Part shown: positions 28,311 through 53,700 of the stretch, piece by piece
Position numbering within the stretch: position 1 is the stretch's first letter
Layout: each line of letters opens with the position of its first letter
Assembly (NCBI RefSeq): GCF_039988855.1
Contig: NZ_JBDXIY010000006.1
Coordinates: 53,072 to 117,071, forward strand
Reading direction: 5' to 3'
Source: Erythrobacter sp.
GTDB lineage: Bacteria > Pseudomonadota > Alphaproteobacteria > Sphingomonadales > Sphingomonadaceae
DNA: 64,000 nucleotides
Position numbers and translations under genes: made by a program
Notes under the pieces: model-generated
Databases searched by the model: none
What the model was told of the DNA's origin: nothing
The model's input: only the letters and a program-made list of their open reading frames with translations

Positions 28311-29639
28311 CTAAAACTCCTCAAGCGCGCTCGAAAGCCTGGGCAAACGCGTCGCCAGGGCCGCAGCTATGCAGTCATGAACAGGTTCGGCGAAGTCCAC
28401 CGGCATCGCTTCGCGCGCTACCGTCGGCGCATCACGTGCGCGGTCCATCAGTTCGTTGATGGCTGCACGCATGAGGCCTTTGCCAAGCCCCGCTGACTTG
28501 CCCGACTGGACAAAATGCCGACCGGTCACCTCGTTCAGCCGGTAGTGACGGTTGGTGCCTGCGGACATCGCGAGCCGGAACCTGTTCTGCGCAATCTGGT
28601 CGGAGTCGACGGCCGGTTGGGCCGAGAGCACATCGTAGAAGGGGGTCAGGCTGTAGCGTCCGCCGGGCTTCAGGAAGATACTGAAATTCTTGGCGTGCCC
28701 GTCCGTTGCACCAATGAGCCAGAAGAGGATCTGGCTCTTGAAAAAGGCGGCTGCGTCGGCTTGCGGATCGTCAGCACCGCGCAACAGGCCGAAGATATCC
28801 TTCATGTTCGGGCCGCCATCGCTCTGATATTTGTGCGTGGGCGGATAGCCGAGTGCTTGGCAGCAGTCCTCTTGCGGCAGACGCAGGATTTGCTTGGCGT
28901 TGCGCCAGTGCCTGTCGAACCGTTCGACGACGAGAACTCGGCGCTGGCCGACGGTCGCAATCTCTGTCGCTGCGACCGACAGGCCGAACGCCTTCATCAG
29001 CGTCATGCAATAGTGCTCGTTGTCGACGCTGTTCGACATGTCGATCATCCCGTCGGCGCTGGGTATCTGTCCAAGTTGCGGCTTCAGGATGTGAGTTGTC
29101 GGGGTCACACCGGCCGGTCGGTGCCATTTCCCATCGATTCGAAGCAGGGCCGTCTTCTCCTGCGCGCCGGCAACCGAGATCCTGAATTCCTGTTTCCGAT
29201 CGACGCCAAGTGGAGCCCGTGCGAGATCGGCGAGAAGGGCCTCGACTTCGGTGTCGCTGACCGGTTCGCTTTCGATGTCGGTACTCTGCGCCTGATCTGC
29301 GCCTTCGGGCAGGAACTGCATGGCACCGACGCAGTCGCGTCCGATGGCTTCGAGTAGGCTGTAGAAGTCGGTGCCCTGAGCGCCCATGCGCTCGGCTACG
29401 CGGCGGCGTACTGCATCCCTGTCCGGGAGAAGATTGTCGAACACGGCGATGACCGGAGCGCCACGATAGGCCGCCGGGGTCAGAGGCAGCGAGAGCGACG
29501 CTGCGAAGCGGTGCTCCCAGGCCAGCCACTCTTCGGAATACCGGAAACTGATTGCACCGCTCGCCGCCTTTTCGAGGCGGCCGACCTGCCTGCCGTTGAT
29601 AAGTACATCGAGGGGCGCATGGGTCTTTTTGCGCGCCAT
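28311..29639 (-). CDS. hipA: Type II toxin HipA-family serine/threonine kinase
   Basis: N-terminal LDVLINGRQVGRL, then ISVAGAQEKTALL and the catalytic TDGHAKNFSIFL. 442 aa. Confidence 0.9.
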   Translation of the reverse strand: MARKKTHAPLDVLINGRQVGRLEKAASGAISFRYSEEWLAWEHRFAASLSLPLTPAAYRGAPVIAVFDNLLPDRDAVRRRVAERMGAQGTDFYSLLEAIGRDCVGAMQFLPEGADQAQSTDIESEPVSDTEVEALLADLARAPLGVDRKQEFRISVAGAQEKTALLRIDGKWHRPAGVTPTTHILKPQLGQIPSADGMIDMSNSVDNEHYCMTLMKAFGLSVAATEIATVGQRRVLVVERFDRHWRNAKQILRLPQEDCCQALGYPPTHKYQSDGGPNMKDIFGLLRGADDPQADAAAFFKSQILFWLIGATDGHAKNFSIFLKPGGRYSLTPFYDVLSAQPAVDSDQIAQNRFRLAMSAGTNRHYRLNEVTGRHFVQSGKSAGLGKGLMRAAINELMDRARDAPTVAREAMPVDFAEPVHDCIAAALATRLPRLSSALEEF

Positions 29640-29888
29640 TTAGAAGACGTCCTCAATCGAGGCGCCGTCCTGCTGACGCGGCACGATCTGAAGATCGAGG
29701 CCGAGGACTGCGATGACACTGATGAGCGTGTCCAGCTTTGTTCCTTCGCTTCCGTTCTCTATGGCCGAGATGGTTTTCTGCTGCGTCCCGGCGAGTCTGG
29801 CGAGCTCGGTTTGGGTCAGGCCCTTGCCGAGGCGATGGGTCTGGATCACGGCTCCGAGTTGACTGGGAAGCCTGACGATCTGGCGCAT
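29640..29888 (-). CDS. hipB: HipB-like XRE-family antitoxin
   Basis: MRQIVRLPSQLGAVIQTHRLGKGLTQTELARLAGTQQKTISAIENG is an HTH_XRE pattern. The stop abuts the hipA start. I chose the internal ATG at 29888 over the track start at 29987. Confidence 0.85.
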   Translation of the reverse strand: MRQIVRLPSQLGAVIQTHRLGKGLTQTELARLAGTQQKTISAIENGSEGTKLDTLISVIAVLGLDLQIVPRQQDGASIEDVF

Positions 29889-29908
29889 AGCATACCTCCA
29901 CACTCCAC

Positions 29909-29981
29909 TATACCGCCAAGGGTATAAAATGGCAATATACCTTTTGGGGAATAAATCACCCTTATTCCCTGGGGGGGTATG
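29909..29981. promoter_or_regulatory. Tandem dyads upstream of hipB (putative HipB operators)
   Basis: TATACC-N6-GGTATA at 29909-29926, TATACC-N6-GGAATA at 29936-29953, and a degenerate TATTCC-N7-GGTATG at 29963-29981. E. coli hipBA operators are TATCC-N8-GGATA. Confidence 0.55.
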
Positions 29982-30084
29982 CTGCATCCGATCGCCACGA
30001 GAGATCCATCAATGGTGCCGGCCGGGCGAACCTCGCGTAGGAGAGAGGCGTCTTGAACAGGATGATCCGACCCGTGTCGGCGAG

Positions 30085-30819
30085 TCAGGAACCGGACTTT
30101 CGTTTCCCCCTAAGCCATCCGATCCTTGGTAACCTGTTGGCCAGCAGAACAAATCCCGAAAGGGCAATGAACGTACCTGCGATACCAAACAGGAGAAGCC
30201 ACCAGCTGTTGATGCGGTCGCGCTGGGTCCAGTCCATGATGTGAACGCCCCAGATGAAATCGAAGAGCCGCCAGGTATCGCTTCGCGCTGACAGGACCGT
30301 TCCGCTCGAGGCGTCGATATAGACGCGCGTCGCGTCGCGTTCGTCATAGGTGATCTGCCAGGCCGGGAAGGGGCCCCTGAATTCGGTCCCGACGTCGCGT
30401 TCGACAAGCCGCGCGCCGGCGACCGAAGTCTCCGGGCCTATCCAGGCGCGGCGAGCGATCGCGCGCGCTGTCGCGGCCGAAATGGGGGACAACAAGCGTC
30501 CGCTATGCGGATCATGCAGCGTGACACCGCCATCCGCTCGCCGCACTTCGGTAACCACCTTGCCGTCGAGAGCACGTGTGGCAACCGAAACCACATCATC
30601 TTGCCTTTCCAGCCATTCGGGTAACTCGGCCCGGGCAGGCAATATTTGCGCAGCGCGGGACACGATATGCTCCGAGCGTACCTCCTCCAGATCGAGAAAG
30701 GACATCAAGGCACCGGTGCCCATCCACATCAGAACTTGCGCCCCGATCAGGAGCGCCAACCACTTGTGGAGCTTGCTGCTAAAGACATGCAAGCGCAGTT
30801 TGAGGGACCGCGAAGCCAA
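30085..30819 (-). CDS. PepSY-associated TM helix / PepSY-domain membrane protein
   Basis: N-terminal SSKLHKWLALLIGAQVLMWMGTGALMSF, a central periplasmic domain and a C-terminal TM helix. Confidence 0.6.
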   Translation of the reverse strand: MASRSLKLRLHVFSSKLHKWLALLIGAQVLMWMGTGALMSFLDLEEVRSEHIVSRAAQILPARAELPEWLERQDDVVSVATRALDGKVVTEVRRADGGVTLHDPHSGRLLSPISAATARAIARRAWIGPETSVAGARLVERDVGTEFRGPFPAWQITYDERDATRVYIDASSGTVLSARSDTWRLFDFIWGVHIMDWTQRDRINSWWLLLFGIAGTFIALSGFVLLANRLPRIGWLRGKRKSGS

Positions 30820-30842: not shown

Positions 30843-31364
30843 TCAGGGCCGCCGCGGCGCGTGCGAGGAGGAGTGGTACTGCACGATCTTCCAGCCCGAT
30901 TCATCGTGCGAAAGGACCGAGGTCGCGACCCCGTCACGCTCGATCACGCGCCCGTCCTCGAGCTCGATCCGGTAGCCGTAGGTTTCGTAGCCATAGGCCA
31001 TATGGCCCTTACGGGTCATCGTCAGCGTCGGGTCGGTGAAAGTAAAGCTCGTGATCGCATCGAGCTCGGGTCCGAGATGGTGCTCCATGTAATTGGCGAA
31101 ACTCCCCTCGGACTTGCCGTTCTCGAAGATCGCGGAGGCTTCCGCGAACAGGGCCGACATGCCTGCGGCATCGCGCGACACCAATGCGGCGCGATAAGCC
31201 TCGAGAATATCTTCAGCGCCCGACACATCTTCGCTGGCCGAACCTGTCTTGTCGGAATGATGTGTCCCATGTCCGGAATGGTCCATGTCCTGCGCCGCAG
31301 CCGGCACTGGCGCCGCAGCAATAGCTAGCGCAACTACCGGCACTCGCAATAAAGTGTTCATCAT
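30843..31364 (-). CDS. Secreted NTF2/SnoaL-like (DUF4440-like) protein with a His-rich N-terminus
   Basis: Signal peptide ..AAPVPAAAQD, then MDHSGHGTHHSD. The body, ILEAYRAALVSRDAAGMSALFAE...GWKIVQYHSS, is NTF2-fold-like. Confidence 0.5.
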   Translation of the reverse strand: MMNTLLRVPVVALAIAAAPVPAAAQDMDHSGHGTHHSDKTGSASEDVSGAEDILEAYRAALVSRDAAGMSALFAEASAIFENGKSEGSFANYMEHHLGPELDAITSFTFTDPTLTMTRKGHMAYGYETYGYRIELEDGRVIERDGVATSVLSHDESGWKIVQYHSSSHAPRRP

Positions 31365-31385: not shown

Positions 31386-32501
31386 CTAAAACCAGAACCG
31401 CACGCCGACGACGTAGTTCGTTACGCTGGGGTCCTCGCCGGCGGCCCTTGCGAAATCGCGGCTGTTGCCGATCTTCCATTCCTGGTCGATGCCGATATAG
31501 GGCGCGAATTCGCGCGCGAATTCGTAGCGCAGGCGAATGCCGACCTCGATCGTATCGATCCCCGAGCCGATCCCGAGTTCGGGAATGTCCTGTGCTGACA
31601 GCGCGATTTCGGCGCGCGGCTGCACGATCAGACGCTGTGTGATGAACTGATCGATTTCACCTTCAATTCGTGCGGTAAGATCGCCCTTGTTCGACAGAAA
31701 TGCTGCTGCATCGACCTCGAACTCATAGGGAACGAGCCCTTGGATGCCCACAACCGCATGGGTGCGTTCAGGCCCAGTAAAATCCTGCCGCACGCCCGCC
31801 TGAAAATCGAAGAAAGGCGCAATGGCACGGCTCCAAAGCGCCTGCACTTCGGCGCTTTCAATGGTCTCGCCGAAGCTGCCTTCGCCTTCGGATTTGAACC
31901 AGAACTTGTTGTAGTCACCGCCATAATAACCCTGGACGTCCCACAAATAGCCGTCGTCGCCCTCGCGCAGGCGGTATTCGAGCCGGTCGCCCTGAAACCA
32001 GAATACCGGCGTTCCGCTCACTTCCTTGGTGACGGCCGCCCGAGACGCAGCCATTTCCTCTGCGCCGACAAAGGCATCGGCGGCAAAGGCGGGGCCCTGT
32101 AGCGCTTCAGGCGGGGGAGGGCCTTCCGGGATCGCCATATGGTCGGCGGATGCTCCATGGCCCATCGCGGAATGATCCATTTGCGACATGCCGCCCTCAT
32201 CCTCCTTGCCGGTCATGGGCATCGCGCCATGCTGGGCTGCCCCATGATCCATGTTCGAATGATCCATAACCTCCGGGTTCTCAACCTCCTCCTGAGGATG
32301 CTGCGTCCGGGAGTGATCCATCTGAGGTTGATCCGGCGCATGGTGATCGTGCGCCTCGCTCGCAGCCTCGTCGTCTTGAGCAGCTTGCCCGGCCTGGCTC
32401 TGCGGTTCGGCAGCCTGCGTGCCGTGATCATGCTGCTGTGCCCAGACTGCGCTCGGAAGTGCCAGCAGGGGGAGGGCGATCATCATGGTCGCGCGCTTCA
32501 T
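31386..32501 (-). CDS. copB: Copper resistance protein B (outer membrane, CopB/PcoB)
   Basis: Signal peptide and a Met/His-rich N-terminal region with repeated MDHS motifs. The C-terminal beta-barrel ends in ..NYVVGVRFWF. Confidence 0.85.
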   Translation of the reverse strand: MKRATMMIALPLLALPSAVWAQQHDHGTQAAEPQSQAGQAAQDDEAASEAHDHHAPDQPQMDHSRTQHPQEEVENPEVMDHSNMDHGAAQHGAMPMTGKEDEGGMSQMDHSAMGHGASADHMAIPEGPPPPEALQGPAFAADAFVGAEEMAASRAAVTKEVSGTPVFWFQGDRLEYRLREGDDGYLWDVQGYYGGDYNKFWFKSEGEGSFGETIESAEVQALWSRAIAPFFDFQAGVRQDFTGPERTHAVVGIQGLVPYEFEVDAAAFLSNKGDLTARIEGEIDQFITQRLIVQPRAEIALSAQDIPELGIGSGIDTIEVGIRLRYEFAREFAPYIGIDQEWKIGNSRDFARAAGEDPSVTNYVVGVRFWF

Positions 32502-34315
32502 CAGCCTTCTCCTCCCTCGAGCGGTCGGACCGTCACCACCTGAAACATTCCGTTATGCATGTGGTAAAAGAGATGACAGTGGAACGCCCAGTCGCCCCGT
32601 TCATTGGCGGTCAGGTCGAATTGCGCGCTGCCGCCGGGCTGGACCGTCAGCGTATGTTTGAGCGGTTGACGGTCGGCCGGAGCCCCGTTCACGAGTTCGA
32701 AGAAGTGTCCGTGCAAATGGATCGGATGCGCCATCATGGTGTTGTTGATGAGCTTGACGCGCACGCGCTCGTTATAGGCAAATTGAATCGGCTCGGTGAT
32801 CTCGTCGAACTTCTTCCCGTCGAACGACCACATATACCGCTCCATATTGCCGGTTAGATGGATCGTCTTGAGCCGGCTCGGACGCCGGTTGTCGGTATTG
32901 GGCTTGGCGGCGATAAGCTGGTTGTAGTTGAGCACGCGGTGGCTCACATCGTCGAGCCCGAGGCCAGGAAAACCCATCCGGTCGATAGGATTCATGGCAA
33001 CCGAGTCGATCCCTGGACCAACTTTCACATTGGGTGGAAGCAGTGATGTATCGCGCATGTTCATACCCGACATGCCGGCCATCCCAGCCATTTCGGATCC
33101 ACCGCTGGAGCCATGATCCATTCCGGCCATGCCACCCGCGCTTTGATCCATGCTCGCCGCGGCACCGTGACCCGCATGCCCGTCTCCAGCAGCGCCTGCG
33201 CTATCGCCGTGCCCGGCCATGCCCATATCGGTCATGGTGAGAAGCGGCGGTTTGCGCAGGGGCGGGACGCTGGCCCGGGCGCCGGGGCGACTGGCAAGGG
33301 TCGCCACGCCCATGCCCGAGCGATCAATGGCCTCGGCGACGAGCGAATAAGCCTCGCCGCGCGGCTCGATGATCACGTCGTAGGTTTCAGCAACACCGAT
33401 CTGGAACTCGTCGGTCTCGACCGGCTGTACGTTTTGGCCATCGGCCTGAACCACGGTCATCGGCAGGCCAGGGATGCGGATATTGAAATAGGTCATCGCG
33501 GCGCCGTTGATAAAGCGCAAGCGGACCCTCTCTCCCGGCTGAAAAAGGTATTCGAGATCGTCTTCCGGCCCGTGACCATTGATGAGGAAGGTGTAGGTCG
33601 CGCCGCTCACGTCGGAGATGTCGGTCGGCATCATCCGCATGCGCGCCCACATTCGGCGCTCTTCGCCGCTCATGTCGTAGTCGTCGGTCCAGGTGGTTTT
33701 GCCATAGTTGAAGTAGCCCTCGGCGACCTTGAGTTTCTTCATGATCGAATAGGGACTCATGGTCGACCAGTCGGACAGCATGACAACATAGTCGCGGTCG
33801 TATTCATATGGTTCGGGCTCGATCGGGTCGACGATCAGGGGGCCGTAATGGCCAAGCGGCTCCTGCAGCGTATGCGCGTGCCACCAATAGGTGCCCGACT
33901 GGCGGATGGGAAACTGGTAACGATAGGTATCGCCCGGCTCAACAGCCGCCATGCTCACCCCGGGTACACCGTCCATAAGGAAGGGTACGAGCAATCCGTG
34001 CCAGTGAATGGAAGTGCCATGCGAACTCCGATTGAGGAGATCGACCGTCAGGTTCTGGCCTTCCTTGAGGCGCACCAAGGGTCCTGGGATGGTGCCATTC
34101 ACGGCAACACCCGGCCCGCGGCGCGAGCCAGTGGTGAAGGTCGTGTCGGCGACGCTCATTGTAAGATGTTCGCCGGACAGAACGTCGCTCCCGCGGCGCG
34201 CGATCGTGCCATCGAGACCTCCGCGTGCCCACGCGGGCATTGCACCGGCAAGGCCAAGCATTCCGACCCCGCTTGCGCTAGACCCCAGAAAATTACGGCG
34301 ATTGATCGCGACCAT
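32501..34315 (-). CDS. copA: Copper resistance multicopper oxidase (CopA/PcoA)
   Basis: Tat signal NRRNFLGSSASGVGMLGLAGAMPAWA. Cu sites HWHG, WWHAH, HPIHLHGH and HCHLFYHMHNGM. Met/His/Gly-rich insert. Start at ATG 34315 with an AGGAG RBS. 1-nt overlap with copB. Confidence 0.9.
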   Translation of the reverse strand: MVAINRRNFLGSSASGVGMLGLAGAMPAWARGGLDGTIARRGSDVLSGEHLTMSVADTTFTTGSRRGPGVAVNGTIPGPLVRLKEGQNLTVDLLNRSSHGTSIHWHGLLVPFLMDGVPGVSMAAVEPGDTYRYQFPIRQSGTYWWHAHTLQEPLGHYGPLIVDPIEPEPYEYDRDYVVMLSDWSTMSPYSIMKKLKVAEGYFNYGKTTWTDDYDMSGEERRMWARMRMMPTDISDVSGATYTFLINGHGPEDDLEYLFQPGERVRLRFINGAAMTYFNIRIPGLPMTVVQADGQNVQPVETDEFQIGVAETYDVIIEPRGEAYSLVAEAIDRSGMGVATLASRPGARASVPPLRKPPLLTMTDMGMAGHGDSAGAAGDGHAGHGAAASMDQSAGGMAGMDHGSSGGSEMAGMAGMSGMNMRDTSLLPPNVKVGPGIDSVAMNPIDRMGFPGLGLDDVSHRVLNYNQLIAAKPNTDNRRPSRLKTIHLTGNMERYMWSFDGKKFDEITEPIQFAYNERVRVKLINNTMMAHPIHLHGHFFELVNGAPADRQPLKHTLTVQPGGSAQFDLTANERGDWAFHCHLFYHMHNGMFQVVTVRPLEGGEG

Positions 34316-34348
34316 CGAAAGCTCCTGTATGAACGATACACCCTCAAC

Positions 34349-34378
34349 TACGAAGGGCCCGGTTCTACCCCTCAAAAA
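34349..34378 (-). promoter_or_regulatory. ECF-type promoter upstream of copA
   Basis: The minus strand reads TTTTTGAGGG-N16-CGTA. The architecture is identical to the sites at 35702-35731 and 35734-35763. It overlaps the 3' end of the sigma gene. Confidence 0.65.
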
Positions 34379-34932
34379 TTTTCCAGGCGGTCGCGCAATT
34401 TTTGCCGGGCACGATAGATGCGGGTCTCGATTGCCTTTTCCGACACGCCGAGAAGTTCGGCGGCTTCCGCCTGGCTGCGTCCGTCGATACTGACCAATAT
34501 GAGCGCTTCGCGAAGACGGATCGGAAGACGCTCGATTTGCTCCAGGAGCATTCGCAATTCCTGGCGCTGCATCGCGATCTCTTGCGGATCGGGGCTGTCG
34601 TCAACAATCGCCAGTGTTTCAGATTCCGCGCCCAATCCGAAAAAGCGCGCCGTTTTGCGTTTGCGCAGCCTGTCGCGGCATTTGTTGAGCACGACTGTCG
34701 TCAAAAAAGGGCCAACAGGACGGTCCGGGTCGAGGCGGTGCCGGGCGACCCAGACCGAAGCAAGCCCGTCCTGAACAGCGTCTTCGGCCTGATGCGGAGA
34801 CGCAAGCATGCGTGTCGCCAAAGCAATAAGCCGCGCTATATGGGGTTCGACCAGCGTCCCATATGCTGCCTTGCTGCCCCTGCGGGCATCTTCGACCAGG
34901 GCGGTCTCGGACCGGCTTTGCGCCTGCGTCAC
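34372..34932 (-). CDS. ECF (sigma-70 family, group IV) RNA polymerase sigma factor, CnrH-like position
   Basis: Region 2 (AEDAVQDGLASVWVARHRLD) and region 4 HTH (SQAEAAELLGVSEKAIETRIYRARQKLR). 186 aa. Confidence 0.88.
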   Translation of the reverse strand: MTQAQSRSETALVEDARRGSKAAYGTLVEPHIARLIALATRMLASPHQAEDAVQDGLASVWVARHRLDPDRPVGPFLTTVVLNKCRDRLRKRKTARFFGLGAESETLAIVDDSPDPQEIAMQRQELRMLLEQIERLPIRLREALILVSIDGRSQAEAAELLGVSEKAIETRIYRARQKLRDRLENF

Positions 34933-34938
34933 GGAAGC

Positions 34939-35373
34939 CTAATTACGCGAATTGCTGGTGAGCGCCTCGGAGACCTTCCGATCGAACAGGCGCTGCTGCT
35001 CGGGCTCGAGTATCTCGCGCATGTCGAAGACGTGTTGGACCGTGGCTTTCTGCAATTCGCCCATCCGTCCATGCACATCGTCAATCGCCGCGCTCACTTC
35101 GGGGCCATATTCGTGCTCGTCGGCCATCGCCTGAGCGAGCCTCGCATTTGCCGCGCGCAGCGATGACTCAAGTTCAGCACGCTCGACGGCGAAGCGGGCT
35201 TCCAGGGTCTCGAGGCGCGCGTTCTGGTCTTCGGTCAAAACCAGTTCCTCGTGCACGAACTGGTGCAGGCTGCCATTGTCTTCGTGGCTGAGCCAGCGAT
35301 CAGCCGCGATCGCCCCCAAACATCCCGCGAGCCCGGCAAGAAGAACGGCAAGCAGGAGGCGTCCGTTCGTCAA
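34939..35373 (-). CDS. Periplasmic heavy-metal sensor (CnrX / Spy-CpxP-ZraP fold family)
   Basis: N-terminal TM/signal anchor, then helical LTEDQ..LE..F repeats. HQFVH (H-x3-H) and VHGRM motifs are possible metal ligands. 144 aa. Confidence 0.65.
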   Translation of the reverse strand: MTNGRLLLAVLLAGLAGCLGAIAADRWLSHEDNGSLHQFVHEELVLTEDQNARLETLEARFAVERAELESSLRAANARLAQAMADEHEYGPEVSAAIDDVHGRMGELQKATVQHVFDMREILEPEQQRLFDRKVSEALTSNSRN

Positions 35374-35376
35374 AGT

Positions 35377-35679
35377 CTAGCTCCCGACATGCAGGAGAGC
35401 GGCGGGAGAAAGGTGCTCGTTCGACGCAAAATCATTATAGGCGGAACTCGCAGTTGAGCCCTGATTGTAGGGCATGATGGTCGTGCCGAAGCCTGCTCCA
35501 AGGCCGATGACGAACAGGCTGCAAAAGAGCGCGGCACGCCGGCGGCGATCGGCAACCTCGCCAAGCTGTCCGGCGCGCTGCCAGACACCATCCATGAAGT
35601 CTGACGGGTCATGCACAATATCATGCGCGGCCAGCTGTTTGAGCGAAGCATCGAGGGAAGGATAATCTGACATAGGCAA
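35377..35679 (-). CDS. Small single-pass membrane protein, putative anti-sigma factor (CnrY-like position)
   Basis: 100 aa with one TM helix (ALFCSLFVIGLGAGFGTTI). It is the first gene of the sensor/sigma operon, as in cnrYXH. The assignment rests on context only. Confidence 0.5.
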   Translation of the reverse strand: MPMSDYPSLDASLKQLAAHDIVHDPSDFMDGVWQRAGQLGEVADRRRRAALFCSLFVIGLGAGFGTTIMPYNQGSTASSAYNDFASNEHLSPAALLHVGS

Positions 35680-35701
35680 CCTCTAACTATTGTAACTCCT
35701 T

Positions 35702-35731
35702 TACGCCACAGCCCGCCGAAGCCCTCAAAAA
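35702..35731 (-). promoter_or_regulatory. ECF-type promoter upstream of the anti-sigma/sensor/sigma operon
   Basis: The minus strand reads TTTTTGAGGG-CTTCGGCGGGCTGTGG-CGTA. Confidence 0.65.
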
Positions 35732-35733
35732 AA

Positions 35734-35763
35734 TATTTGAGGGGTATGATATTCTCGCGCGTA
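35734..35763 (+). promoter_or_regulatory. ECF-type promoter for the divergent DUF2231 operon
   Basis: The plus strand reads TATTTGAGGG-GTATGATATTCTCGCG-CGTA. Its -35 element forms a palindrome with the -35 of the opposite promoter. CGTA ends 9 nt before ATG 35773. Confidence 0.6.
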
Positions 35764-35772
35764 TCAAGGCAT

Positions 35773-36447
35773 ATGAGCATATTCACCCGCCTTGGCCTCG
35801 CCGCCCTCTTCGCAGCCTTTCTGCTTTCGGCACCCTTGCACGCGCATGAAGGGCATCAGGACAATATGTCCGACGCTGAAATGCTGGCGATGGAGGAGGG
35901 TATGGCCATGCCGGACGACGCCCATGCCGGCGAGCTTGCGCCGCCCGGGGAAGAGATGGACAGGCCGAACGCGCAGCAGTCCATGTCGCCTGAAGACATG
36001 ATGCAGCAGAAAATCACGGAAAACCGCCTGACCTCGGCAGAGGACCTTCTGTCGCGCCTTCATCCGGTCGCGGCGCATTTCCCGATTGCGCTTCTCCTCG
36101 TCGCCGCACTCGCCGAACTCGCCTTGATGGTGCGCCCGACCTTGGGGCTTGAGACGACGATCCGGTTTCTCGTAGCCGGCGGCGCGATCGGGGCGGTCGT
36201 TGCGGCTTTGCTCGGATGGTTTGCGGGTGGATGGCGACTGCTGGACCGGTCGGAAAATCTCGCCATTCACCGCTGGAACGGCACGACGATTGCCATATTG
36301 AGCCTCCTCGCCTGGTGGGTTGCTGCGCGCGGAAAGGGGAGAGGCGCGCTGCGCTTGCTTCTGGCGCTGATCGCTGCGGCGCTCATCGTACAAGGCTATT
36401 TCGGCGGGGAGATGGTGCACGGGCCCAATCATATGGGCATCATGTAG
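35773..36447 (+). CDS. DUF2231-like membrane protein with a Met/His-rich periplasmic N-terminus
   Basis: Signal peptide MSIFTRLGLAALFAAFLLSAPLHA, then HEGHQDNMSDAEMLAMEEGMAMPDDAH and four TM helices (HPVAAHFPIALLL..). Confidence 0.6.
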   Translation: MSIFTRLGLAALFAAFLLSAPLHAHEGHQDNMSDAEMLAMEEGMAMPDDAHAGELAPPGEEMDRPNAQQSMSPEDMMQQKITENRLTSAEDLLSRLHPVAAHFPIALLLVAALAELALMVRPTLGLETTIRFLVAGGAIGAVVAALLGWFAGGWRLLDRSENLAIHRWNGTTIAILSLLAWWVAARGKGRGALRLLLALIAAALIVQGYFGGEMVHGPNHMGIM

Positions 36448-37134
36448 GTGGGACGGGTAGCCGCTCCTCAAGGCGACCGAGCCTTCACGCCAGCCCTTGG
36501 CAAAGCTTGGCTGACCCCGGTCTATGACCTCACCATCGCCTTGTTTACGCGTGAGCGGACATGGCGGCGCGCGGTTGTCCGCGCCGCCAATCTTGCGCCC
36601 GGCGATCATCTTATCGATGTTGGGTGCGGAACCGGCACCTTGCTTCGCGATCTCATGATCAGCTGTCCGCAGGCGGGTCTCGCCGGCGTTGAGCCCGATC
36701 CGGCAGCACTGGCCATCGCGCGTCGCAAGTTTGGCGCCGGGGCGGATCTGATCCGTTGGCACAATGGCTTTCTCGATACCCTCGACCTGACCGCGCGATG
36801 GCAGCCAAACAAGATCGTCAGCAGCCTCGTCTTTCATCAGGTTCCGCTGGGTGAAAAGCGGGCAATCCTGGAGCAGATGCACGATCTGCTCCAGCCCGGA
36901 GGCATGGTGCTGATTGCCGACTATATGGCTCAGGACTCCGCCCTTATGCGCAAGCTTTTCCGCGCCACGGTGCAGCAGCTCGACGGTGTCGAAGACACGC
37001 AGCCCAATGCCGACGGTATCCTGGAGCGGCAGCTTGCCGAAATTTTCACCGACGCCGAAAGGCTTCACGTCTTCCCGACCGCCACCGGAGCGATATCGCT
37101 CTGGCACGGCTACAAGAAAGGTCCCCATACATGA
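36448..37134 (+). CDS. Class I SAM-dependent methyltransferase
   Basis: Motif I LIDVGCGTGTL and a post-I acidic residue. GTG start directly after the upstream TAG stop. Confidence 0.7.
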   Translation: MGRVAAPQGDRAFTPALGKAWLTPVYDLTIALFTRERTWRRAVVRAANLAPGDHLIDVGCGTGTLLRDLMISCPQAGLAGVEPDPAALAIARRKFGAGADLIRWHNGFLDTLDLTARWQPNKIVSSLVFHQVPLGEKRAILEQMHDLLQPGGMVLIADYMAQDSALMRKLFRATVQQLDGVEDTQPNADGILERQLAEIFTDAERLHVFPTATGAISLWHGYKKGPHT

Positions 37135-37598
37135 CCCGCACGTTTGCGCGAAAGCGCTTTCGCAACTCGTTCGCCGCAACAGCCCTCCTGGTAATTGCCG
37201 CCTGTTCGAACGTTGCCCAGGCGGCCACCTACACGATGTATCGCGATCCCGGCTGCGGCTGCTGCCTCAAATGGGCCAACCATTTCGAGAACGGCATGGA
37301 CGCCGAGGTTGCGACTGTCGACACCACTGACATGGGTTCGGTGAAAGCCGACAAGGGCGTACCTTCCGATCTGTGGTCGTGCCATACGATGGTGATCGAG
37401 GGATATGTCATCGAAGGTCACGTCCCGGCAGAAGCAATCTCAAAATTGCTGCGCGAGCGCCCGGCAGGCGTTTCCGGACTTGCCGTTCCCGGCATGCCGC
37501 TGGGCTCACCTGGCATGGAATACGAGAACCGTGTGCAACCCTATGACGTCATCGCCTTTGGGCCCGGCGGCCGTACGGTTTTCGCAAGTTACCCCTGA
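37131..37598 (+). CDS. DUF411 (CopG-like) periplasmic metal-binding protein
   Basis: Signal peptide, YRDPGCGCCLKWANHF and CHTMVIEGYVIEGHVP. ATGA overlap with the methyltransferase gene. Confidence 0.75.
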   Translation: MTRTFARKRFRNSFAATALLVIAACSNVAQAATYTMYRDPGCGCCLKWANHFENGMDAEVATVDTTDMGSVKADKGVPSDLWSCHTMVIEGYVIEGHVPAEAISKLLRERPAGVSGLAVPGMPLGSPGMEYENRVQPYDVIAFGPGGRTVFASYP

Positions 37599-37633: not shown

Positions 37634-37915
37634 ATGATGAAAATGATCCTCACCGTCACTGGCGCGCTTGCTTTCTCGGCAAGCCCGGTCCTTGCTCAGG
37701 AGGCCCCTTCTGAAAAGCCCAAAATGTGCGAGATGATGCTCGATGGCAAGAAAATGCAGGGTATGATGAAGAAGGACAAGGACGGAAAAATGTCATGCCA
37801 GATGATGGACCATTCCAAGATGGACCATTCGAAAATGGACCATGGCCAGTCCGGCCATGGCAAGAAAAAGGCCGCCGAGGCTGAAAAGCCGCAGACCGAA
37901 CACAAGCACGACTGA
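37634..37915 (+). CDS. Small secreted Met/His/Lys-rich protein (probable periplasmic Cu-binding peptide)
   Basis: Signal peptide ..SPVLAQE. The mature part is MCEMMLDGKKMQGMMKKDKDGKMSCQMMDHSKMDHSKMDHGQSGHG. GGAGAA RBS. Confidence 0.6.
   Translation: MMKMILTVTGALAFSASPVLAQEAPSEKPKMCEMMLDGKKMQGMMKKDKDGKMSCQMMDHSKMDHSKMDHGQSGHGKKKAAEAEKPQTEHKHD
37805..37849 (+). repeat. Three tandem 15-nt repeats encoding the MDHSK/MDHSK/MDHGQ units
   Basis: ATGGACCATTCCAAG / ATGGACCATTCGAAA / ATGGACCATGGCCAG, read directly from the sequence. Confidence 0.9.
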
Positions 37916-37962: not shown

Positions 37963-38247
37963 CTAACGGGCCATGCGCTCGATGAGAGTGAGAAGTTCGG
38001 CGATCTTCTCCGATTGATCGGCCTTGTTGTTCGATGAGAGCGCCTGTTCGATGCAGTGCTTGGTATGGATGTCGAGTACTTTGGTCCTGGCGGCGCGCGC
38101 GGCGGCTTCGAGCGCGAGGATCTGCTGCAGGATATCGACGCAATAGCGCTCTTCTTCCATCATTCTCGATATTCCTCGCGCCTGCCCCTCGATCTTGCGC
38201 ATTCGGGTCAAGACATCACGAAACTTGGGGTTTTGATCATCGCTCAT
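37963..38247 (-). CDS. csoR: CsoR/RcnR/FrmR-family metal-sensing transcriptional repressor (CsoR-like x-C-H-C fingerprint)
   Basis: From ATG 38247 (GGAGAG RBS): MSDDQNPKFRDVLTRMRKIEGQARGISRMMEEERYCVDILQQI...HTKHCIE. It carries a Cys in helix 2 plus H-x3-C in helix 3. Confidence 0.8.
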   Translation of the reverse strand: MSDDQNPKFRDVLTRMRKIEGQARGISRMMEEERYCVDILQQILALEAAARAARTKVLDIHTKHCIEQALSSNNKADQSEKIAELLTLIERMAR

Positions 38248-38316
38248 GCCGTTCTCTCCAGACGCCGAGTTCATTCCTGACTGCTTTTGACACAGTTGCA
38301 AAGCAGTTCGCAATAC

Positions 38317-38334
38317 ACTATACCCCCCTATAGT
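38317..38334. promoter_or_regulatory. CsoR-type operator (inverted repeat around a C6 tract)
   Basis: ACTATA-CCCCCC-TATAGT, a perfect 6-bp inverted repeat flanking C6. It lies between the divergent csoR-like and DUF5676-like genes. A TTGACA hexamer lies at 38287-38292. Confidence 0.65.
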
Positions 38335-38351
38335 ATACGACGGAGGCAAAG

Positions 38352-38624
38352 ATGACCAATGCGACGACGAAAGGTTCAATCCTTGCCTGGGGCTGGGCTT
38401 TCAGCGTCTTACTGCTGATTACCTATCTGCTCTGCGTGGCCTTTGGCCTGATCGCGCCCGATACTTTCCATATGCATGAAGCATGGGCGCCTTTGCTGCC
38501 AGGCTTCGATTGGTTGACATGGCCTGGCTTCTTCGCCGGGGCTATCGGCAGCTTTCTCTATGGCTGGTATATCGCGATCCTAGGGGTCCCGCTCGTCCGC
38601 TATTTCAGAAAAAGGATCGGGTGA
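38352..38624 (+). CDS. Small two-TM membrane protein (DUF5676-like)
   Basis: 90 aa with two hydrophobic helices. GGAGGC RBS. The DUF assignment is from memory. Confidence 0.5.
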   Translation: MTNATTKGSILAWGWAFSVLLLITYLLCVAFGLIAPDTFHMHEAWAPLLPGFDWLTWPGFFAGAIGSFLYGWYIAILGVPLVRYFRKRIG

Positions 38625-38681
38625 AGAACCGGCAATGTGGATTTATCCGCTGCCGCGAATTCCGCACAGGTCGCAAAGCCT

Positions 38682-39521
38682 ATGACAATGCACAGCTTAC
38701 CCTTTTCCGGTTCGTCTTTCAGCAAAAAGAGGGAATTGTTCCTGCATACGGTTATCGGGCCAGTGCTGGGCATCTTAATCCTTCATCCGCTCACCGCGCT
38801 CGTTTATGGGTCTGGAGGGGCAGCAGCGGCGAGCGTGCCATTTGCTGAGCAGTTGGGCTCGGCGGTCGATCGACTGAGCGCGGCATTTGAAATCGAAATG
38901 CTGCCCATGAGCCTGGCTTTCGCGGTGATCGGCGGCGCAATCGGCCTGACGTTTGGTCTTTATCATCTGCGGCTCATGGCAGATCGCCAGATAATCCGCT
39001 CTCTGGAGCATCAATTGGCCGAAGAGCTGCCGCTGCTCATCGCCCGAGGCGAGGGCGCACAGCTGGAATTCAAATCGTCGCTGCGTTGGGGTACGCGTGA
39101 ACAGCGCGCAAATCGAAGCCTTCAACAGGTCGTGTTCAAAACGATTGCCGGATTTCTCAACAATGATGGCGGCACGCTGCTCATCGGCGTCGACGATAGC
39201 GGGGGCATCGTAGGAATCGAGGCCGATCTGAAGACTCTCAAGCACCCCAATAAGGACGGGTTCGAGCGCGTGCTGATGGACGCGATACGATCAGCACTCG
39301 GCGGTAACGCCTGCGCCCTGATCCATTGTTACTTTCACGATCTCGATGGCCGAACTGTTTGCCGCGTGATCGCACAAAAGAGCCTCGAACCGATCTATTT
39401 TCTCGACAATGGAGTGGCGCGCTTCTTGCTCCGCGCCGGCAACAGTACACGGGAATTGGATGCGCGCGAAGCGCACACTCACCTTTCGCAGCGCGGAAAA
39501 GAATATGCACGGCAGGCATGA
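38682..39521 (+). CDS. Membrane-anchored AlbA_2 (divergent AAA_4 / Schlafen-like) domain protein
   Basis: Two to three N-terminal TM helices, then GEGAQLEFKSSLRWG....VFKTIAGFLNNDGGTLLIGVDDSGGIVGIE, the AlbA_2 core as I recall it. The start is uncertain (GTG 38637 or ATG 38682). Confidence 0.55.
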   Translation: MTMHSLPFSGSSFSKKRELFLHTVIGPVLGILILHPLTALVYGSGGAAAASVPFAEQLGSAVDRLSAAFEIEMLPMSLAFAVIGGAIGLTFGLYHLRLMADRQIIRSLEHQLAEELPLLIARGEGAQLEFKSSLRWGTREQRANRSLQQVVFKTIAGFLNNDGGTLLIGVDDSGGIVGIEADLKTLKHPNKDGFERVLMDAIRSALGGNACALIHCYFHDLDGRTVCRVIAQKSLEPIYFLDNGVARFLLRAGNSTRELDAREAHTHLSQRGKEYARQA

Positions 39522-39667
39522 GATGATCCTCTGCCATAAATCGGCAAGTCGGGTTGATCTCGTTCCCCGTTTCACGCTGTCACTTTCAGCGGGGTACGCC
39601 GCCTGTCAGCTCGGTTCGGCCTTGTCGGCGGAACACTGGCACACCTTTGGCCAGATCCAGGGAGACT

Positions 39668-41881
39668 ATGATGGACCATTCTAATTGCAGCCATAGCGGC
39701 CACGGCGAAGCCGTTGCTGGCGATGATGGCCGCTACGATCTCGTTCCCGCTGGTTATGACGGACCGGTTTATACCTGCCCTATGCACCCGCAGGTCCGGC
39801 AGCCAAAGATGGGGTCGTGCCCGATCTGCGGCATGGGTCTCGAACTCGAATCCGCGGCCATGGTCGATGACGGACCGAACCCGGAGCTCGTCGACTTTAC
39901 AAGGCGTTTCTGGGTCGGCGCCATCCTCACCTTGCCGCTGCTTGTTCTCACGATGGGCCCCTATGTGGGCTGGCCGGGCGTGCGCGAAATATTTGGCGAG
40001 CGGGCCACCCTATGGATTGAACTGGTGCTCGGTACACCGGTCGTGTTGTGGAGCGGATGGCCGTTTCTCGAACGGGGCTGGAATTCGTTCCGCACCTGGA
40101 ACCTCAACATGTTCTCGCTCATCGGCATGGGCGTTCTCGCCGCATGGATTTTCAGTGTCGTCGCCGTCCTGGCACCGGACATCTTCCCGGATGGCTTTCG
40201 CGATCCAGAGGGACATGTCGGCGTCTATTTCGAAGCCGCGGCCGTTATCGTTACGCTTGTGCTCCTCGGCCAAGTCATGGAGCTGCGCGCGCGTGAAGGC
40301 ACCGGTAAGGCCATTCGCGCTCTCCTTGATCTTGCAGCCAAAACCGCCCGCGTCATCAGGGCAGACGGCACTGAAGAAGAAATCCCCCTTGAGCACGTGG
40401 CTGTTGGCGACCAATTGCGGGTCCGCCCAGGCGACAAGGTGCCCGTTGACGGTGTAGTGCTCAAAGGCCGCTCGTCGATCGACGAAAGCATGATCACCGG
40501 TGAACCAGTCCCGGTCGAAAAGGTCGAGGGCGACGCCGTGACCGGGGCAACGATCAACGGAACAGGCAGCCTGGTGATCGAAGCGAAACGTGTCGGATCA
40601 GACACCATGCTCGCGCAGATCGTGGAAATGGTTGCGGCCGCACAGCGCTCGCGCGCGCCGATCCAGAAGTACGCCGACAAGGTGGCCGGCATGTTCGTCC
40701 CCGCGGTTATCGGCATAGCCGTGCTCGCCTTCATCGCCTGGGCGATCTGGGGCCCCGCACCAGCGCTTGCCTATGCCCTCATTGCTGCAGTTGCGGTACT
40801 GATCATCGCCTGCCCCTGCGCTCTCGGCCTGGCGACGCCGATGTCGATCATGACCGCGACAGGAAGAGGGGCGCAGGCGGGCGTTCTGATCAAGAACGCC
40901 GAAGCGCTCGAGCGCTTCGAGAAAATCGATACGCTGATCGTCGACAAGACGGGTACGCTGACCGAGGGGCGCCCAAGGCTCGTCGCGGTTATGCCCGAAG
41001 AGGGCCACGATGAAATCGAGGTGTTGAGCCTGGCGGCGTCGCTCGAGCGCGGGTCGGAGCACCCGCTCGCAGAAGCGATCGTGCGCGGCGCCGAAGAACG
41101 CGGCGTCGCGATGGAAGCCGCCAGCGAGTTCGAGGCCGTAACCGGTAAAGGCGTCATGGGCACGGTTTCCGGTAAACGCGTCGCGCTGGGTAACCTTGCG
41201 CTCCTGTCAGACCTCGGTTTGGAAGGTGCCACGCTCAGCGAAAAGGCCAATGCGCGCCGCGACGAAGGCGAAACCGTCATGTTCGTGATCGTGGCAGGCA
41301 AGATTGCTGGCCTCATCAGCGTTGCCGACCCGGTCAAGGAAACCACTCCTGCGGCGATCAAGGACCTGCACAAGCTCGGCCTTACGATCATTATGGCGAC
41401 CGGCGACAATGAGCGGACGGCGCAGGCGGTTGCCGCCCGCCTTGGTATCGACGACATTCGCGCAGGCGTTCTTCCCGCGGACAAGGCGCGGCTCATCCGT
41501 GAATTGCAGGAAGGCGGTGCCAAGGTGGCCATGGCCGGCGACGGGGTTAACGACGCTCCGGCGCTTGCCCAGGCAGATGTCGGCATTGCGATGGGAACCG
41601 GCGCGGATGTCGCGATCGAAAGTGCGGGGATTACGCTCGTTAGAGGCAATCTCGACGGGATCGTCCGGGCCCGCAAGCTTGCCCGGGCTACGATGCGCAA
41701 TATTCGGCAAAATCTGTTTTTTGCGCTGATTTACAACGCCTCGGGCGTGCCCGTCGCGGCCGGTGTTCTTTATCCTTTCTTCGGCATCCTGATTGGCCCA
41801 ATGTTCGCAGCCTTTGCGATGAGTGCGTCCTCCATATCGGTAGTCCTGAACTCGCTCAGACTTCGTAGTGCGAAGCTGTGA
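39668..41881 (+). CDS. P1B-type heavy-metal (Cu+-type) translocating ATPase
   Basis: His-rich [13 protein letters not shown], a Cys-rich [22 protein letters not shown] module, TGEPVP, CPC ([13 protein letters not shown]), [15 protein letters not shown], and YN..P / MSASS in the last TM helices, which are copper-type. Start at ATG 39668. Confidence 0.9.
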
Positions 41882-42001
41882 ACATTCGACAATCGAACAA
41901 ATCGCCATCCCTGATCCATGCCTCAATGCCTCCGCATTGCGGCAGGGCCGGTCGCCTGTGGAAGATGGCAGCGCGACGCAAGCCATAGAAAGGTAAACCG
42001 C

Positions 42002-43375
42002 ATGGATAACCATTCGGCGCACGAAGATAATCTGAACAAGAGCAGCATCACCCTGCTTGGCGGCGTTGCCATGGGGACTGGCGTCATGATCGGTGCGGGC
42101 ATTTTTGCGCTCACCGGTCAGATCGCGGAGCTTGCCGGCCCTCTCTTCCCCCTCTCCTTCGTCGCAGGCGCGCTCATCACCGCGCTCGCATCATACAGCT
42201 ACATCAAGATGTCGAATGCCTGGCCATCGTCGGGTGGCATCGCGATGATCCTGCAAAAGGCCTATGGTCCGGGTGTCGTCGCGGCCTCCGCATCAGTGCT
42301 GATGGCCATGTCGATGGTTATCAATGAGAGCCTGGTGGCGCGAACCTTCGCGACCTATGCGCTGCGTCCGTTTGGGCTCGAAGAAAACGCATTGCTGATA
42401 TCGGGCTTGGCGCTGGGACTCATCGTTTTCGCCTATCTGGTCAACGCCGCGGGCAATAGATCGGTAAGCGGGTTTTCGCTCGTTATGTCGGCGATAAAGG
42501 TTGGCGGGATAGCGGTGTTCGCAGTTGCGGCGATCTGGGCCAGCGGACTGTTCGCAGGCGCCTTTACCGAGCCTGCTTCCTTGTCGAACGGCGAAGCATT
42601 GCTCGCTTCGGTGGCCTTCTCGATCCTTGCATTCAAGGGGTTTACAACCATCACCAACAGTGGCGGAGAAATCGTCGATCCGCACAAGAATGTCGGTCGC
42701 ACAATCATGATCTCGATTGCCGTGTGCATCGTGGTTTATCTGCTCGTCGCCTTGGCCGTTGGCTCCAGTCTCAGCATCGGCGAGATCGTTCAGGCGCGTG
42801 ACTATTCCCTGGCCGCGGCAGCGCGCCCCGCATTGGGAGATCTCGGGTTCTATTTCACCGTAGCGATTGCCATCTCGGCGACTACGTCGGGGGTCATTGC
42901 GAGCGTGTTCGCCGTCTCGCGGATGCTGACAATGCTGACCGAGATGAAGATGATCCCCCACAGCCATTTCGGAATGAAGGGCGGCATCCGTAGCCACATG
43001 CTGGTCTATACGGTCGTCATAGCCGGCACACTGGCGGTCCTGTTCGACCTTTCCCGCATCGCCTCGCTCGGCGCCTTCTTCTACCTTGTCATGGACATGC
43101 TCGTCCATTGGGGCGTGTTTCGCAGTCTTCGCAAAGAGATCGGCGCCCGCGCTTCCGTCCTGCTCACCGCGCTGGCGGCCGACGCCGTTGTGCTCGCCGC
43201 ATTTACGGCCGCCAAACTCAAGAGCGATCCGGCCGTGGTTTCCTATGCGGTGATCGGAATCGCGGCCGTGTTCGTGGCGGAATGGATATTTCTGTCCGGC
43301 CAGCGCAGGGAGACGAACACAGATTCTATTGAAAACAAGGTCGAGAGCGGAAGCGGCGATCACGACCGTCCTTGA
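42002..43375 (+). CDS. APC-family amino acid/polyamine permease
   Basis: About 12 TM helices. GGVAMGTGVMIGAGIFALTGQ is typical of the APC N-terminus. Start at ATG 42002. Confidence 0.75.
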   Translation: MDNHSAHEDNLNKSSITLLGGVAMGTGVMIGAGIFALTGQIAELAGPLFPLSFVAGALITALASYSYIKMSNAWPSSGGIAMILQKAYGPGVVAASASVLMAMSMVINESLVARTFATYALRPFGLEENALLISGLALGLIVFAYLVNAAGNRSVSGFSLVMSAIKVGGIAVFAVAAIWASGLFAGAFTEPASLSNGEALLASVAFSILAFKGFTTITNSGGEIVDPHKNVGRTIMISIAVCIVVYLLVALAVGSSLSIGEIVQARDYSLAAAARPALGDLGFYFTVAIAISATTSGVIASVFAVSRMLTMLTEMKMIPHSHFGMKGGIRSHMLVYTVVIAGTLAVLFDLSRIASLGAFFYLVMDMLVHWGVFRSLRKEIGARASVLLTALAADAVVLAAFTAAKLKSDPAVVSYAVIGIAAVFVAEWIFLSGQRRETNTDSIENKVESGSGDHDRP

Positions 43376-51068: not shown

Positions 51069-51093
51069 AATGCTTCCCTTGCCCGGAGCGTCG

Positions 51094-53034: not shown

Positions 53035-53693
53035 TTGGAGGCGGCCTTTCCGAGAGCCGGAGCATGTTGCGCGCGAAGTTCTTCGGTCGCGCGTTTTACA
53101 ATGAGGTAAGCCGAATGCAGGAAGATCAGGGCGATCACCGCTGCGACCAGCAGATCGGGCCAAGCTTGCCCGGTCCAGGCGACCAGGGCAGCAGCGATGA
53201 TCACTCCGACATTGGCGATCGCGTCATTGCGGCTGAACAGCCAGATCGCGGATACATGTGCGTCGCCTTCGCGAAACCGCATCAGCACAAGCGCCGCCGC
53301 GATGTTGACTATCAAGGCTGCGACGGCGATCCCGCCCATCAAGCCGGCTTCCGGCGCGACCGCGTTAAGCGATCGCCAGGCCGCCAGACCGATCACTCCG
53401 AGGCCTAGTACGCCCAGAAACAGGCCCTGTGCCAGCGCGACCCGGGCGCGCGTGCGGGCAGTCCACGCAAGAGCAAGGATGCCGATGAGCGTGATCGATC
53501 CATCGCCGATGAAGTCGAGAGCGTCGGCCTTGAGCGCTTGGCTGTCCGCCAGAAACCCGCCGAAGGCCTCGAAAACGCCAAAGCCCAGATTGAGCAATAC
53601 GACGATCCAAAGGGCGCGGCGATAGGCGGGGTCTGCGCCTGCTCTTTGCGTATCGCCTGTGCAGCCGCAATCCGATGTTTCGTTATTCGACAT
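53031..53693 (-). CDS. Cation diffusion facilitator (CDF) transporter, short form lacking a C-terminal cytoplasmic domain
   Basis: ADSQALKADALDFIGDG (TM2 metal site) and a Cys/His-containing N-terminus, MSNNETSDCGCTGD. 220 aa and six TM helices. Confidence 0.8.
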   Translation of the reverse strand: MSNNETSDCGCTGDTQRAGADPAYRRALWIVVLLNLGFGVFEAFGGFLADSQALKADALDFIGDGSITLIGILALAWTARTRARVALAQGLFLGVLGLGVIGLAAWRSLNAVAPEAGLMGGIAVAALIVNIAAALVLMRFREGDAHVSAIWLFSRNDAIANVGVIIAAALVAWTGQAWPDLLVAAVIALIFLHSAYLIVKRATEELRAQHAPALGKAASK

Positions 53694-53700
53694 GAGGCAT

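Follow-up and report, generated by a model that had tools for sequence, protein, structure and literature searches.

A CnrX-type sensor and ECF sigma factor module associated with copAB and three predicted promoters in Erythrobacter

The 64,000-nt stretch of Erythrobacter sp. DNA analyzed here (contig NZ_JBDXIY010000006.1, positions 53,072 to 117,071; below, the window) carries on its minus strand, in this order, genes for a small protein with one transmembrane (TM) segment, a 144-aa PF13801 sensor and a 186-aa extracytoplasmic function (ECF) sigma factor, followed by copA, copB and the genes of a SnoaL_3 and a PepSY_TM protein. A first-pass annotation had read the order as far as copB as a CnrYXH-like module rewired to a copper multicopper oxidase, and the open reading frames (ORFs) and their family matches bear this order out. 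We call the first three genes Y, X and sigma. Y (35377..35673, minus strand) encodes a putative single-pass anti-sigma factor of 98 aa, named for its position, size and topology. X (34939..35373, minus) encodes a membrane-anchored periplasmic sensor of the CnrX type, 144 aa long, with matches to PF13801, CnrX and NccX. The sigma gene (34372..34932, minus) encodes a CnrH-like protein of the ECF20 / ECF291 lineage, 186 aa long, with matches to PF04542, PF08281 and CnrH. The product of copA (32501..34318, minus) is a periplasmic multicopper oxidase of the cop/pco type (TIGR01480, 719 bits) with a twin-arginine translocation (Tat) signal and three Cu-oxidase domains, and copB (31386..32501, minus), whose start overlaps the copA stop, encodes outer-membrane copper resistance protein B (PF05275 at 1.1e-85).

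Its matches identify the sigma factor as CnrH-type. The best match in the PDB is CnrH (4cxf_A, 9.9e-25), with SigW next at 3.6e-16, and among plasmid homologues with a name, CnrH and NccH come closest (38-39% identity). The protein has a single Cys and no C-terminal extension; region 4 ends at residue 179 of 186. Matches to the sigma factor on Azospirillum plasmids were discarded: they are unrelated ECF sigma factors of a flagellar cluster, with no sensor gene.

Sequence and structural model alike identify X as a membrane-anchored periplasmic four-helix sensor that is homologous to CnrX and has a complete His3-Glu-Met site. X matches PF13801 at 6.8e-16 and, end to end, full-length CnrX (E 1.6e-22) and NccX (E 4.7e-22) in the PDB; it is 41% identical to CnrX and has an N-terminal TM segment at residues 6-24. 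An AlphaFold2 model built with 20 homologues (predicted local distance difference test score 83) consists of an N-terminal TM helix and then a helical bundle. All of the top 15 Foldseek matches of this model in the PDB are CnrXs or NccX (target-normalised TM-score 0.71-0.87; for the CnrXs structures, TM-score 0.79-0.87 and root mean square deviation 1.7-3.3 A), and the CnrX-type sensor that the first-pass annotation proposed, with a model comparison as the check, is upheld by both searches. Might X instead be a chaperone or envelope-stress adaptor like CpxP, Spy or ZraP, with the sigma factor answering envelope damage caused by copper rather than the binding of metal? X does match the LTXXQ family (PF07813, 1.9e-6), some databases label its relatives 'Spy/CpxP family protein refolding chaperone', and CpxP is among the weak structural matches. 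However, the matches to CnrX are far stronger (E 1e-22, and a Foldseek E of 1e-6 vs 0.2-0.3 for CpxP), the metal ligands are strictly conserved, and X is membrane anchored like CnrX. We regard the chaperone explanation as very improbable and treat X as a CnrX-type sensor.

The small protein Y is encoded two genes upstream of sigma, as CnrY is. It more likely starts at the ATG at 35673, which has AGAGG six nt before it and gives 98 aa, than at the TTG at 35679 (100 aa); the first-pass annotation was right about a small protein with one TM segment, and its length of 100 aa is probably two residues too long. Y is predicted to have a cytoplasmic N-terminus of 48 aa with RRRR at its end, a TM segment at residues 49-67, directly preceded by these basic residues, and a periplasmic tail of about 30 aa that ends in LSPAALLHVGS. 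CnrY, at 95 aa, is of similar length and has its single TM segment at residues 46-67. A C-terminal (S/A)P-x-x-LL motif is common to the Y proteins and CnrY (LSPAALLHV in Y, SPFGLLIG in CnrY), and the C-terminus is the part of CnrY reported to dock into CnrX (PMC6851896). Y gave no Pfam, NCBIfam or PDB match, including none to the CnrY/NccY entries of NCBIfam; both phmmer and a profile search against the PDB were negative. Its family comprises 61 clusters in 5.8 billion proteins, all of them labelled 'hypothetical', and the Y proteins of Caulobacter, Asticcacaulis and Sphingobium chlorophenolicum can barely be aligned to that of the window. We conclude that Y is a putative functional and positional analogue of CnrY whose homology to it is unproven; its role is assigned from position, size, topology and the C-terminal motif.

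The Y profile also matched seven very long proteins (P0186, P0205, P0220, P0227, P0231, P0233 and P0234; 955-2875 aa), over profile positions 8-43 or so and 4-13 times in each. They have the look of repeat proteins, P0186 containing VCBS/cadherin-like sequence, and the matches are probably compositional.

The module and its surroundings share a sequence motif. The pattern TTTGAGGG-N16-CGTA has exactly three matches in the window, at 34349-34376 and 35702-35729 on the minus strand and at 35736-35763 on the plus strand, which lie before copA, before Y, and before a divergent gene for a DUF2231 protein, respectively. No match arose in 100 dinucleotide-preserving shuffles (0 expected vs 3 seen). 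Three copies with an exact 16-nt spacing are what the first-pass annotation had reported; its positions were correct, although its 30-nt spans include two extra 5' bases beyond the 28-nt motif proper. With one mismatch allowed in the core TGAGGG-N16-CGTA, no further site appeared in the window, and relaxed forms (AGGG-N16-CGTA, N15 or N17 spacers, CGTN) yielded a single extra match at chance level, at 29393 inside a hipA-like ORF. There is no further credible site in the 64 kb beyond the three exact copies. All three sites follow the grammar A/T-rich-TTTGAGGGnT-N13-GCGTA and stand at promoter distance before Y, copA and the DUF2231 gene.

Known CnrH promoters have a closely similar form. On pMOL28, cnrYp reads TTCAAGGG-N17-CGTATAAG (AAGGG-N17-CGTATA) and cnrCp reads ACCGAGGG-N17-CGTATAGA (GAGGG-N17-CGTATA). 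The published transcription start sites (TSSs) precede cnrY by 23 bp (TSS_53286) and cnrC by 24 bp (TSS_54660) (PMC9045368); in locus coordinates, both are exactly 9 nt past the A of CGTA. Three more loci of the nickel/cobalt type, one from Ralstonia and two from Cupriavidus plasmids, have CGAGGG-N17-CGTAT at the same places. By sequence comparison, the window motif follows the same grammar as the CnrH promoters, which are anchored by experiment, but its spacer is shorter by one base, N16 in copper-type loci against N17 in the nickel/cobalt type. A 2026 Cupriavidus paper quotes the ECF291 consensus as -35 ATACGC and -10 CCCTCA (PMC13492112, Table 4); reverse-complemented, this gives exactly TGAGGG...GCGTAT. 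The match suggests that the ECF291 group logo corresponds to the window motif and was read on the opposite strand in that paper; a wrong-strand reading may also explain why the consensus could not be matched there to cnrYp and cnrCp.

We predicted the starts of the three window promoters by transferring from the CnrH promoters the distance of 9 nt after the A of CGTA. P_Y (35702..35729, minus), the predicted autoregulatory promoter of the Y-X-sigma operon, has its -35 element TTTGAGGG at 35729-35722 and its -10 element CGTA at 35705-35702; transcription would start at about 35693 and leave a 5' untranslated region (5'UTR) of about 20 nt, with AGAGG before the ATG at 35673. P_copA (34349..34376, minus) is a predicted internal promoter at the junction of sigma and copA, with TTTGAGGG at 34376-34369 and CGTA at 34352-34349. 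Its start is predicted at about 34340, which would give a 5'UTR of about 22 nt with the Shine-Dalgarno sequence AGGAG. The TGA stop codon of sigma is the TGA within the -35 block of this site, an overlap to which the first-pass annotation had already drawn attention. Between sigma and copA, scans for promoters of the sigma-70 type and for terminators gave no element that would shield copA from read-through. P_div (35736..35763, plus), the predicted promoter of the divergent genes, has its -35 element at 35736-35743 and its -10 CGTA at 35760-35763. The ATG of the DUF2231 gene (35773) stands 9 nt after this CGTA and the mapped CnrH starts likewise lie 9 nt after theirs, so that the predicted start is 35772/35773 and the DUF2231 mRNA is probably leaderless or nearly so.

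P_div would serve an operon of three genes (35773..37598, plus) that abut or overlap. The first (35773-36447) encodes a DUF2231 membrane protein with a His/Met-rich periplasmic N-terminus, the second (36448-37134) an S-adenosylmethionine-dependent methyltransferase, and the third (37131-37598) a DUF411 metal-binding protein; the same set is divergent from Y in many related loci. Just 3' of the DUF411 gene lies a gene (37634-37915, plus) for a 93-aa secreted protein, very rich in Met and His (MDHSKMDHSKMDHGQSGHG...) and with no family match. It is likely a periplasmic copper-binding protein, and its gene is possibly the last of the divergent operon. On the other side, the SnoaL_3/DUF4440 gene (30843-31364, minus) and the PepSY_TM gene (30085-30819, minus) are co-directional with copAB, remain syntenic with it in most related loci, and are probably the tail of the copA operon.

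The sites in the window recur at the same positions in related loci. A scan of one genome per species with the sensor alignment returned 580 loci, and the best 80 of them all belong to Sphingomonadales, either Erythrobacteraceae or others. An Erythrobacter metagenome-assembled genome is nearly identical to the window (sensor identity 98%). Promoter positions were counted in 81 related loci with a sigma gene, 79 of which have a Y gene. The gene immediately 3' of sigma is copA in 78 of the 81, and NAGGG-N16-CGT is found at the sigma/copA junction in 77. Every one of the 79 loci with Y has the motif upstream of that gene, and 75 have a second, oppositely oriented copy in the same intergenic region. 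The sigma stop codon falls in or next to the -35 block in 74/78 loci, and of the 32 loci where the DUF2231 gene follows the motif, 18 have 8-9 nt between CGTA and ATG. In a set of 69 non-redundant sites, the 13 positions at the centre of the spacer are almost devoid of information, whereas several positions left free by the search pattern are conserved (T-1 0.88, G0 0.90, T+6 0.74, G20 0.81, A24 0.99) and an A/T-rich stretch lies upstream. The first-pass claim of three promoters with one architecture is thus strengthened by the CnrH promoter grammar, by positions conserved across about 80 related loci and by the free spacer.

Could the TTTGAGGG...CGTA elements be operators of a conventional regulator, such as a dimeric repressor bound to the inverted CCCTCAAA/TTTGAGGG pair in 35702-35763, rather than ECF promoters? 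The two intergenic copies do form a near-palindrome, CCCTCAAA-TATTTT-TTTGAGGG, and a CsoR-family repressor is encoded nearby. However, in 66 of 68 loci the back-to-back copies stand anywhere between 9 and 16 bp apart, the outliers being 26 and 37. Such variable spacing is incompatible with one fixed dimer operator; we reject a fixed palindromic operator on this ground, and the spacing favors two independent promoters. The copA site, moreover, is a single oriented copy. The element consists of two blocks with a strict but unconstrained 16-nt spacer, it always points to a gene at promoter distance, and the same grammar is tied by experiment to CnrH-dependent transcription starts. The operator explanation retains only the slimmest probability, and we take the three elements as predicted ECF promoters.

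The arrangement is not a one-off rewiring: it defines a large clade whose members lie on chromosomes and many plasmids of Sphingomonadales and Caulobacterales. Sigma homologues occur in 88 plasmid records, about 65 of them from Sphingomonadales and only about 9 from Cupriavidus or Ralstonia; the copper type may outnumber the nickel/cobalt type. In more distant relatives on plasmids the logic is kept while the copper cargo differs. Plasmid pSPHCH01 of Sphingobium chlorophenolicum, whose sigma factor is 37.5% identical, has Y-X-sigma-copA-copB with a divergent copC-copD, and a Blastomonas plasmid has copABCD as cargo. In Asticcacaulis pASTEX02, copA-copB lie inside the divergent operon and copA keeps its own motif; in Caulobacter henricii pCB4, an N17 copy of the motif precedes the gene of a copper-binding protein. 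Everywhere sampled, the cargo is copper related: copAB, copCD, DUF411 and DUF2231 proteins, copper-binding proteins and P-type ATPases. Extra motif copies in relatives precede a second DUF2231 gene and the gene of an APC-family permease. The latter, an amino-acid/polyamine-type permease of about 450 aa, has its own TTTGAGGG-N16-CGTAC site in many loci (for example L011 2746, L046 3878 and L031 4787, all on the minus strand) and looks like a regulon member in relatives. The window's own permease gene (41918-43375, plus) lies directly 3' of a P-type ATPase gene and has no motif.

Which metal does X sense? The ligands of CnrX are His42, His46, Glu63, His119 and Met123, and recruitment of Met123 is the reported nickel/cobalt trigger (PMC6851896). 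Their equivalents in X (H37, H41, E58, H114 and M118) are invariant in a four-way alignment with CnrX, and among 30 non-redundant sensors from copper contexts H37, H114 and M118 are present in all and H41 and E58 in 29. Other positions separate the copper-context sensors from four sensors of the nickel/cobalt clade: D98, H101 and M104 (30/30) against Q or R, E, and A; Q50, Q126 and F130 (30/30) against E, H and Y; and E86 (28/30) and H87 (27/30) against N and P. F130 occupies the position of Tyr135 in CnrX, and the structure of the CnrX Y135F mutant (4WWB) is among the Foldseek matches. So is a Cu-bound CnrX (3EPV), which shows that the His3-Glu-Met site of CnrX can hold Cu(II). From the alignment, the clade-specific residues may form a second site or tune the first.

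These comparisons bear on the possibility that the same module senses nickel/cobalt, or zinc, as CnrX does, with copAB adjacent through co-selection on metal-resistance islands or for cross-protection. In its favor, all five CnrX ligands are kept, including the Met that separates nickel/cobalt from zinc sensing (PMC6851896). Yet all promoters of this type found in about 85 loci lie before copper-handling genes, and none before a nickel/cobalt pump; the window's own CnrCBA-like resistance-nodulation-division (RND) pump (54935-60667) has no motif and a MerR-family gene beside it; the sensors differ from the nickel/cobalt clade at D98, H101, M104 and H87; and Cu(II) can occupy the CnrX site. We think nickel/cobalt or zinc sensing unlikely, though it is the least improbable of the alternatives considered here.

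We therefore favor, with good though not full confidence, a reading of the module as a copper-associated member of the CnrYXH (ECF291) family that autoregulates and drives copAB and the divergent operon, with copper as the signal inferred from the cargo and regulon. What stands firm beneath this reading is the homology of X and sigma, the topology of X and Y, the three deeply conserved sites of the ECF type and the copper-related cargo. The first-pass idea of a CnrYXH-like module wired to a copper multicopper oxidase holds for the sensor, the sigma factor, the promoters and the copAB cargo, and does not extend to a detectable homology of Y to CnrY; nor is the rewiring a single event confined to this locus.

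Several points weigh against this reading. The activity of the promoters, their dependence on the sigma factor and the metal that induces them are all predictions. When a profile of 19 Y sequences was aligned by hhalign to four CnrY/NccY sequences the probability was 0.4%, and among 57 matches of the Y profile in 1.84 billion representatives none was CnrY-like by BLAST against CnrY. X keeps the exact nickel/cobalt ligand set of CnrX; hence the site alone is no argument for copper over nickel/cobalt. Finally, the window encodes other copper regulators, such as the CsoR-family repressor at 37963-38379, and parts of the island could also be under their control.

By analogy with CnrYXH (PMC6851896), the single-pass Y would hold the sigma factor at the membrane at rest. 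Periplasmic metal, most likely copper, would bind the X dimer, alter the contact between X and Y and so free the sigma factor, which with RNA polymerase would fire all three promoters. P_Y would provide positive autoregulation of the Y-X-sigma operon; P_copA would boost copA-copB-SnoaL-PepSY and raise copAB above the level of the regulators; and P_div would yield the leaderless DUF2231-methyltransferase-DUF411 transcript. The output would be oxidation of Cu(I) in the periplasm together with copper handling, where CnrH controls nickel/cobalt efflux by an RND pump.

A fuller version of this proposal, which we offer tentatively and consider doubtful as a whole, would make the copper form the majority of CnrYXH systems and a third distinct class of copper-linked ECF system, in which a periplasmic sensor acts through a trans-membrane anti-sigma factor on sigma. 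Copper specificity would stem from a second, clade-specific site, Asp98-x-x-His101-x-x-Met104, perhaps joined by His87, placed atop the ancestral His3-Glu-Met site; the anti-sigma factor would be fast evolving and unrelated in sequence to CnrY; and the regulon would include the conserved leaderless DUF2231 transcript and, in relatives, the APC-family permease.

Comparison with the closest known systems sets out what is shared and what differs. CnrYXH of Cupriavidus metallidurans pMOL28 and NccYXH of strain 31A (ECF20 / ECF291) have the same gene order of small TM protein, sensor and sigma factor. X is 41% identical to CnrX, with the same fold (predicted here) and all five ligands kept; the sigma factor is about 39% identical to CnrH. 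As in cnr, two co-directional promoters of the form (G/A)AGGG-spacer-CGTA lie before Y and between sigma and the cargo, with predicted 5'UTRs of 20-22 nt against 23-24 nt in cnr. The family's usual cargo, an RND CBA pump with CnrT, is replaced here by copAB. Unlike CnrYXH and NccYXH, the locus has a third, divergent promoter for a further operon, a 16-nt rather than a 17-nt spacer, a cargo promoter whose -35 element overlaps the sigma stop codon, a Y not recognisably similar to CnrY, a sensor with D98, H101, M104 and H87 and with Phe at the CnrX Tyr135 position, and a copper form hosted by Alphaproteobacteria.

In textbooks, cop/pco multicopper oxidases are controlled by two-component systems (CopRS/PcoRS). 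CopRS, PcoRS and CusRS share with the module their output genes (copA/pcoA and copB/pcoB) and presumably the compartment in which they sense, the periplasm. They differ from it in that control here would lie with an ECF sigma factor, a separate sensor and a putative anti-sigma factor; of the ORFs examined around copAB (27.3 to 44.4 kb), none was identified as a histidine kinase or response regulator of the CopRS type. A review of metal-responsive ECF sigma factors lists only CarQ and CorE as linked to copper, and CorE of Myxococcus xanthus also activates a multicopper oxidase gene (PMC6851896). Although CorE is, as here, an ECF sigma factor linked to copper, it binds copper through its own Cys-rich C-terminal extension (CxC motif) without an anti-sigma factor, whereas the sigma factor here has no such extension. 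CarQ of Myxococcus xanthus is held by the six-TM CarR, and SigAb of Acinetobacter controls copper genes only indirectly (PMC12153292). None of CorE, CarQ/CarR and SigAb uses a CnrX-type periplasmic sensor, unlike the module described here. Our full-text literature searches, which did not cover the supplements of the ECF classification paper or the original cnr promoter papers, found no published description of a CnrX-type or ECF system that controls copAB.

Other metal-related genes lie in the window. A second copper circuit (37963-41881) comprises the CsoR-family metal-sensitive repressor (37963-38379, minus), a divergent gene for a DUF5676 protein with two TM segments (38352-38624), a gene for a membrane-anchored protein with a Schlafen/AlbA_2 domain (38637-39521), an odd neighbor within a copper island, and a copper P-type ATPase gene (about 39680-41881). 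A second multicopper oxidase gene (49449-51068) adjoins one for a cytochrome c-FTR1 iron permease fusion (51094-53163); this pair (49449-53163, minus) resembles a ferroxidase and permease rather than a cop system. A heavy-metal island (53031-60667) contains a cation diffusion facilitator (CDF) transporter gene (53031-53693, minus), a MerR-family regulator gene (53780-54193, plus) and the RND CBA pump (54935-60667), with C and B subunits that share 36-41% identity with CnrC and CnrB; the island has no ECF-type motif and is therefore probably under MerR-type control. At the edge of the copper island lie a HipA-like kinase toxin gene (PF07804, PF13657) and a small upstream ORF for a HipB-like helix-turn-helix protein (28311-29987, minus).

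The module is clearly real and widespread, and its mechanism is readable, but it extends a known signalling architecture rather than founding a new one; among Sphingomonadales of sea and soil the arrangement is widespread yet undescribed. The sigma factor and its promoters would form a compact, apparently orthogonal set with a readable regulon, useful for biosensor design and also for annotation, because the Y proteins of relatives are now labelled 'hypothetical' and the sensors 'CnrR' or 'Spy/CpxP chaperone'. The sensors would offer a natural experiment in metal selectivity, with first-shell ligands as in CnrX and different second-shell or accessory residues. If the reading is true, Sphingomonadales, an entire order of bacteria important in the environment, together with Caulobacterales, use a CnrX-type periplasmic sensor and an ECF cascade for copper, often on conjugative plasmids.

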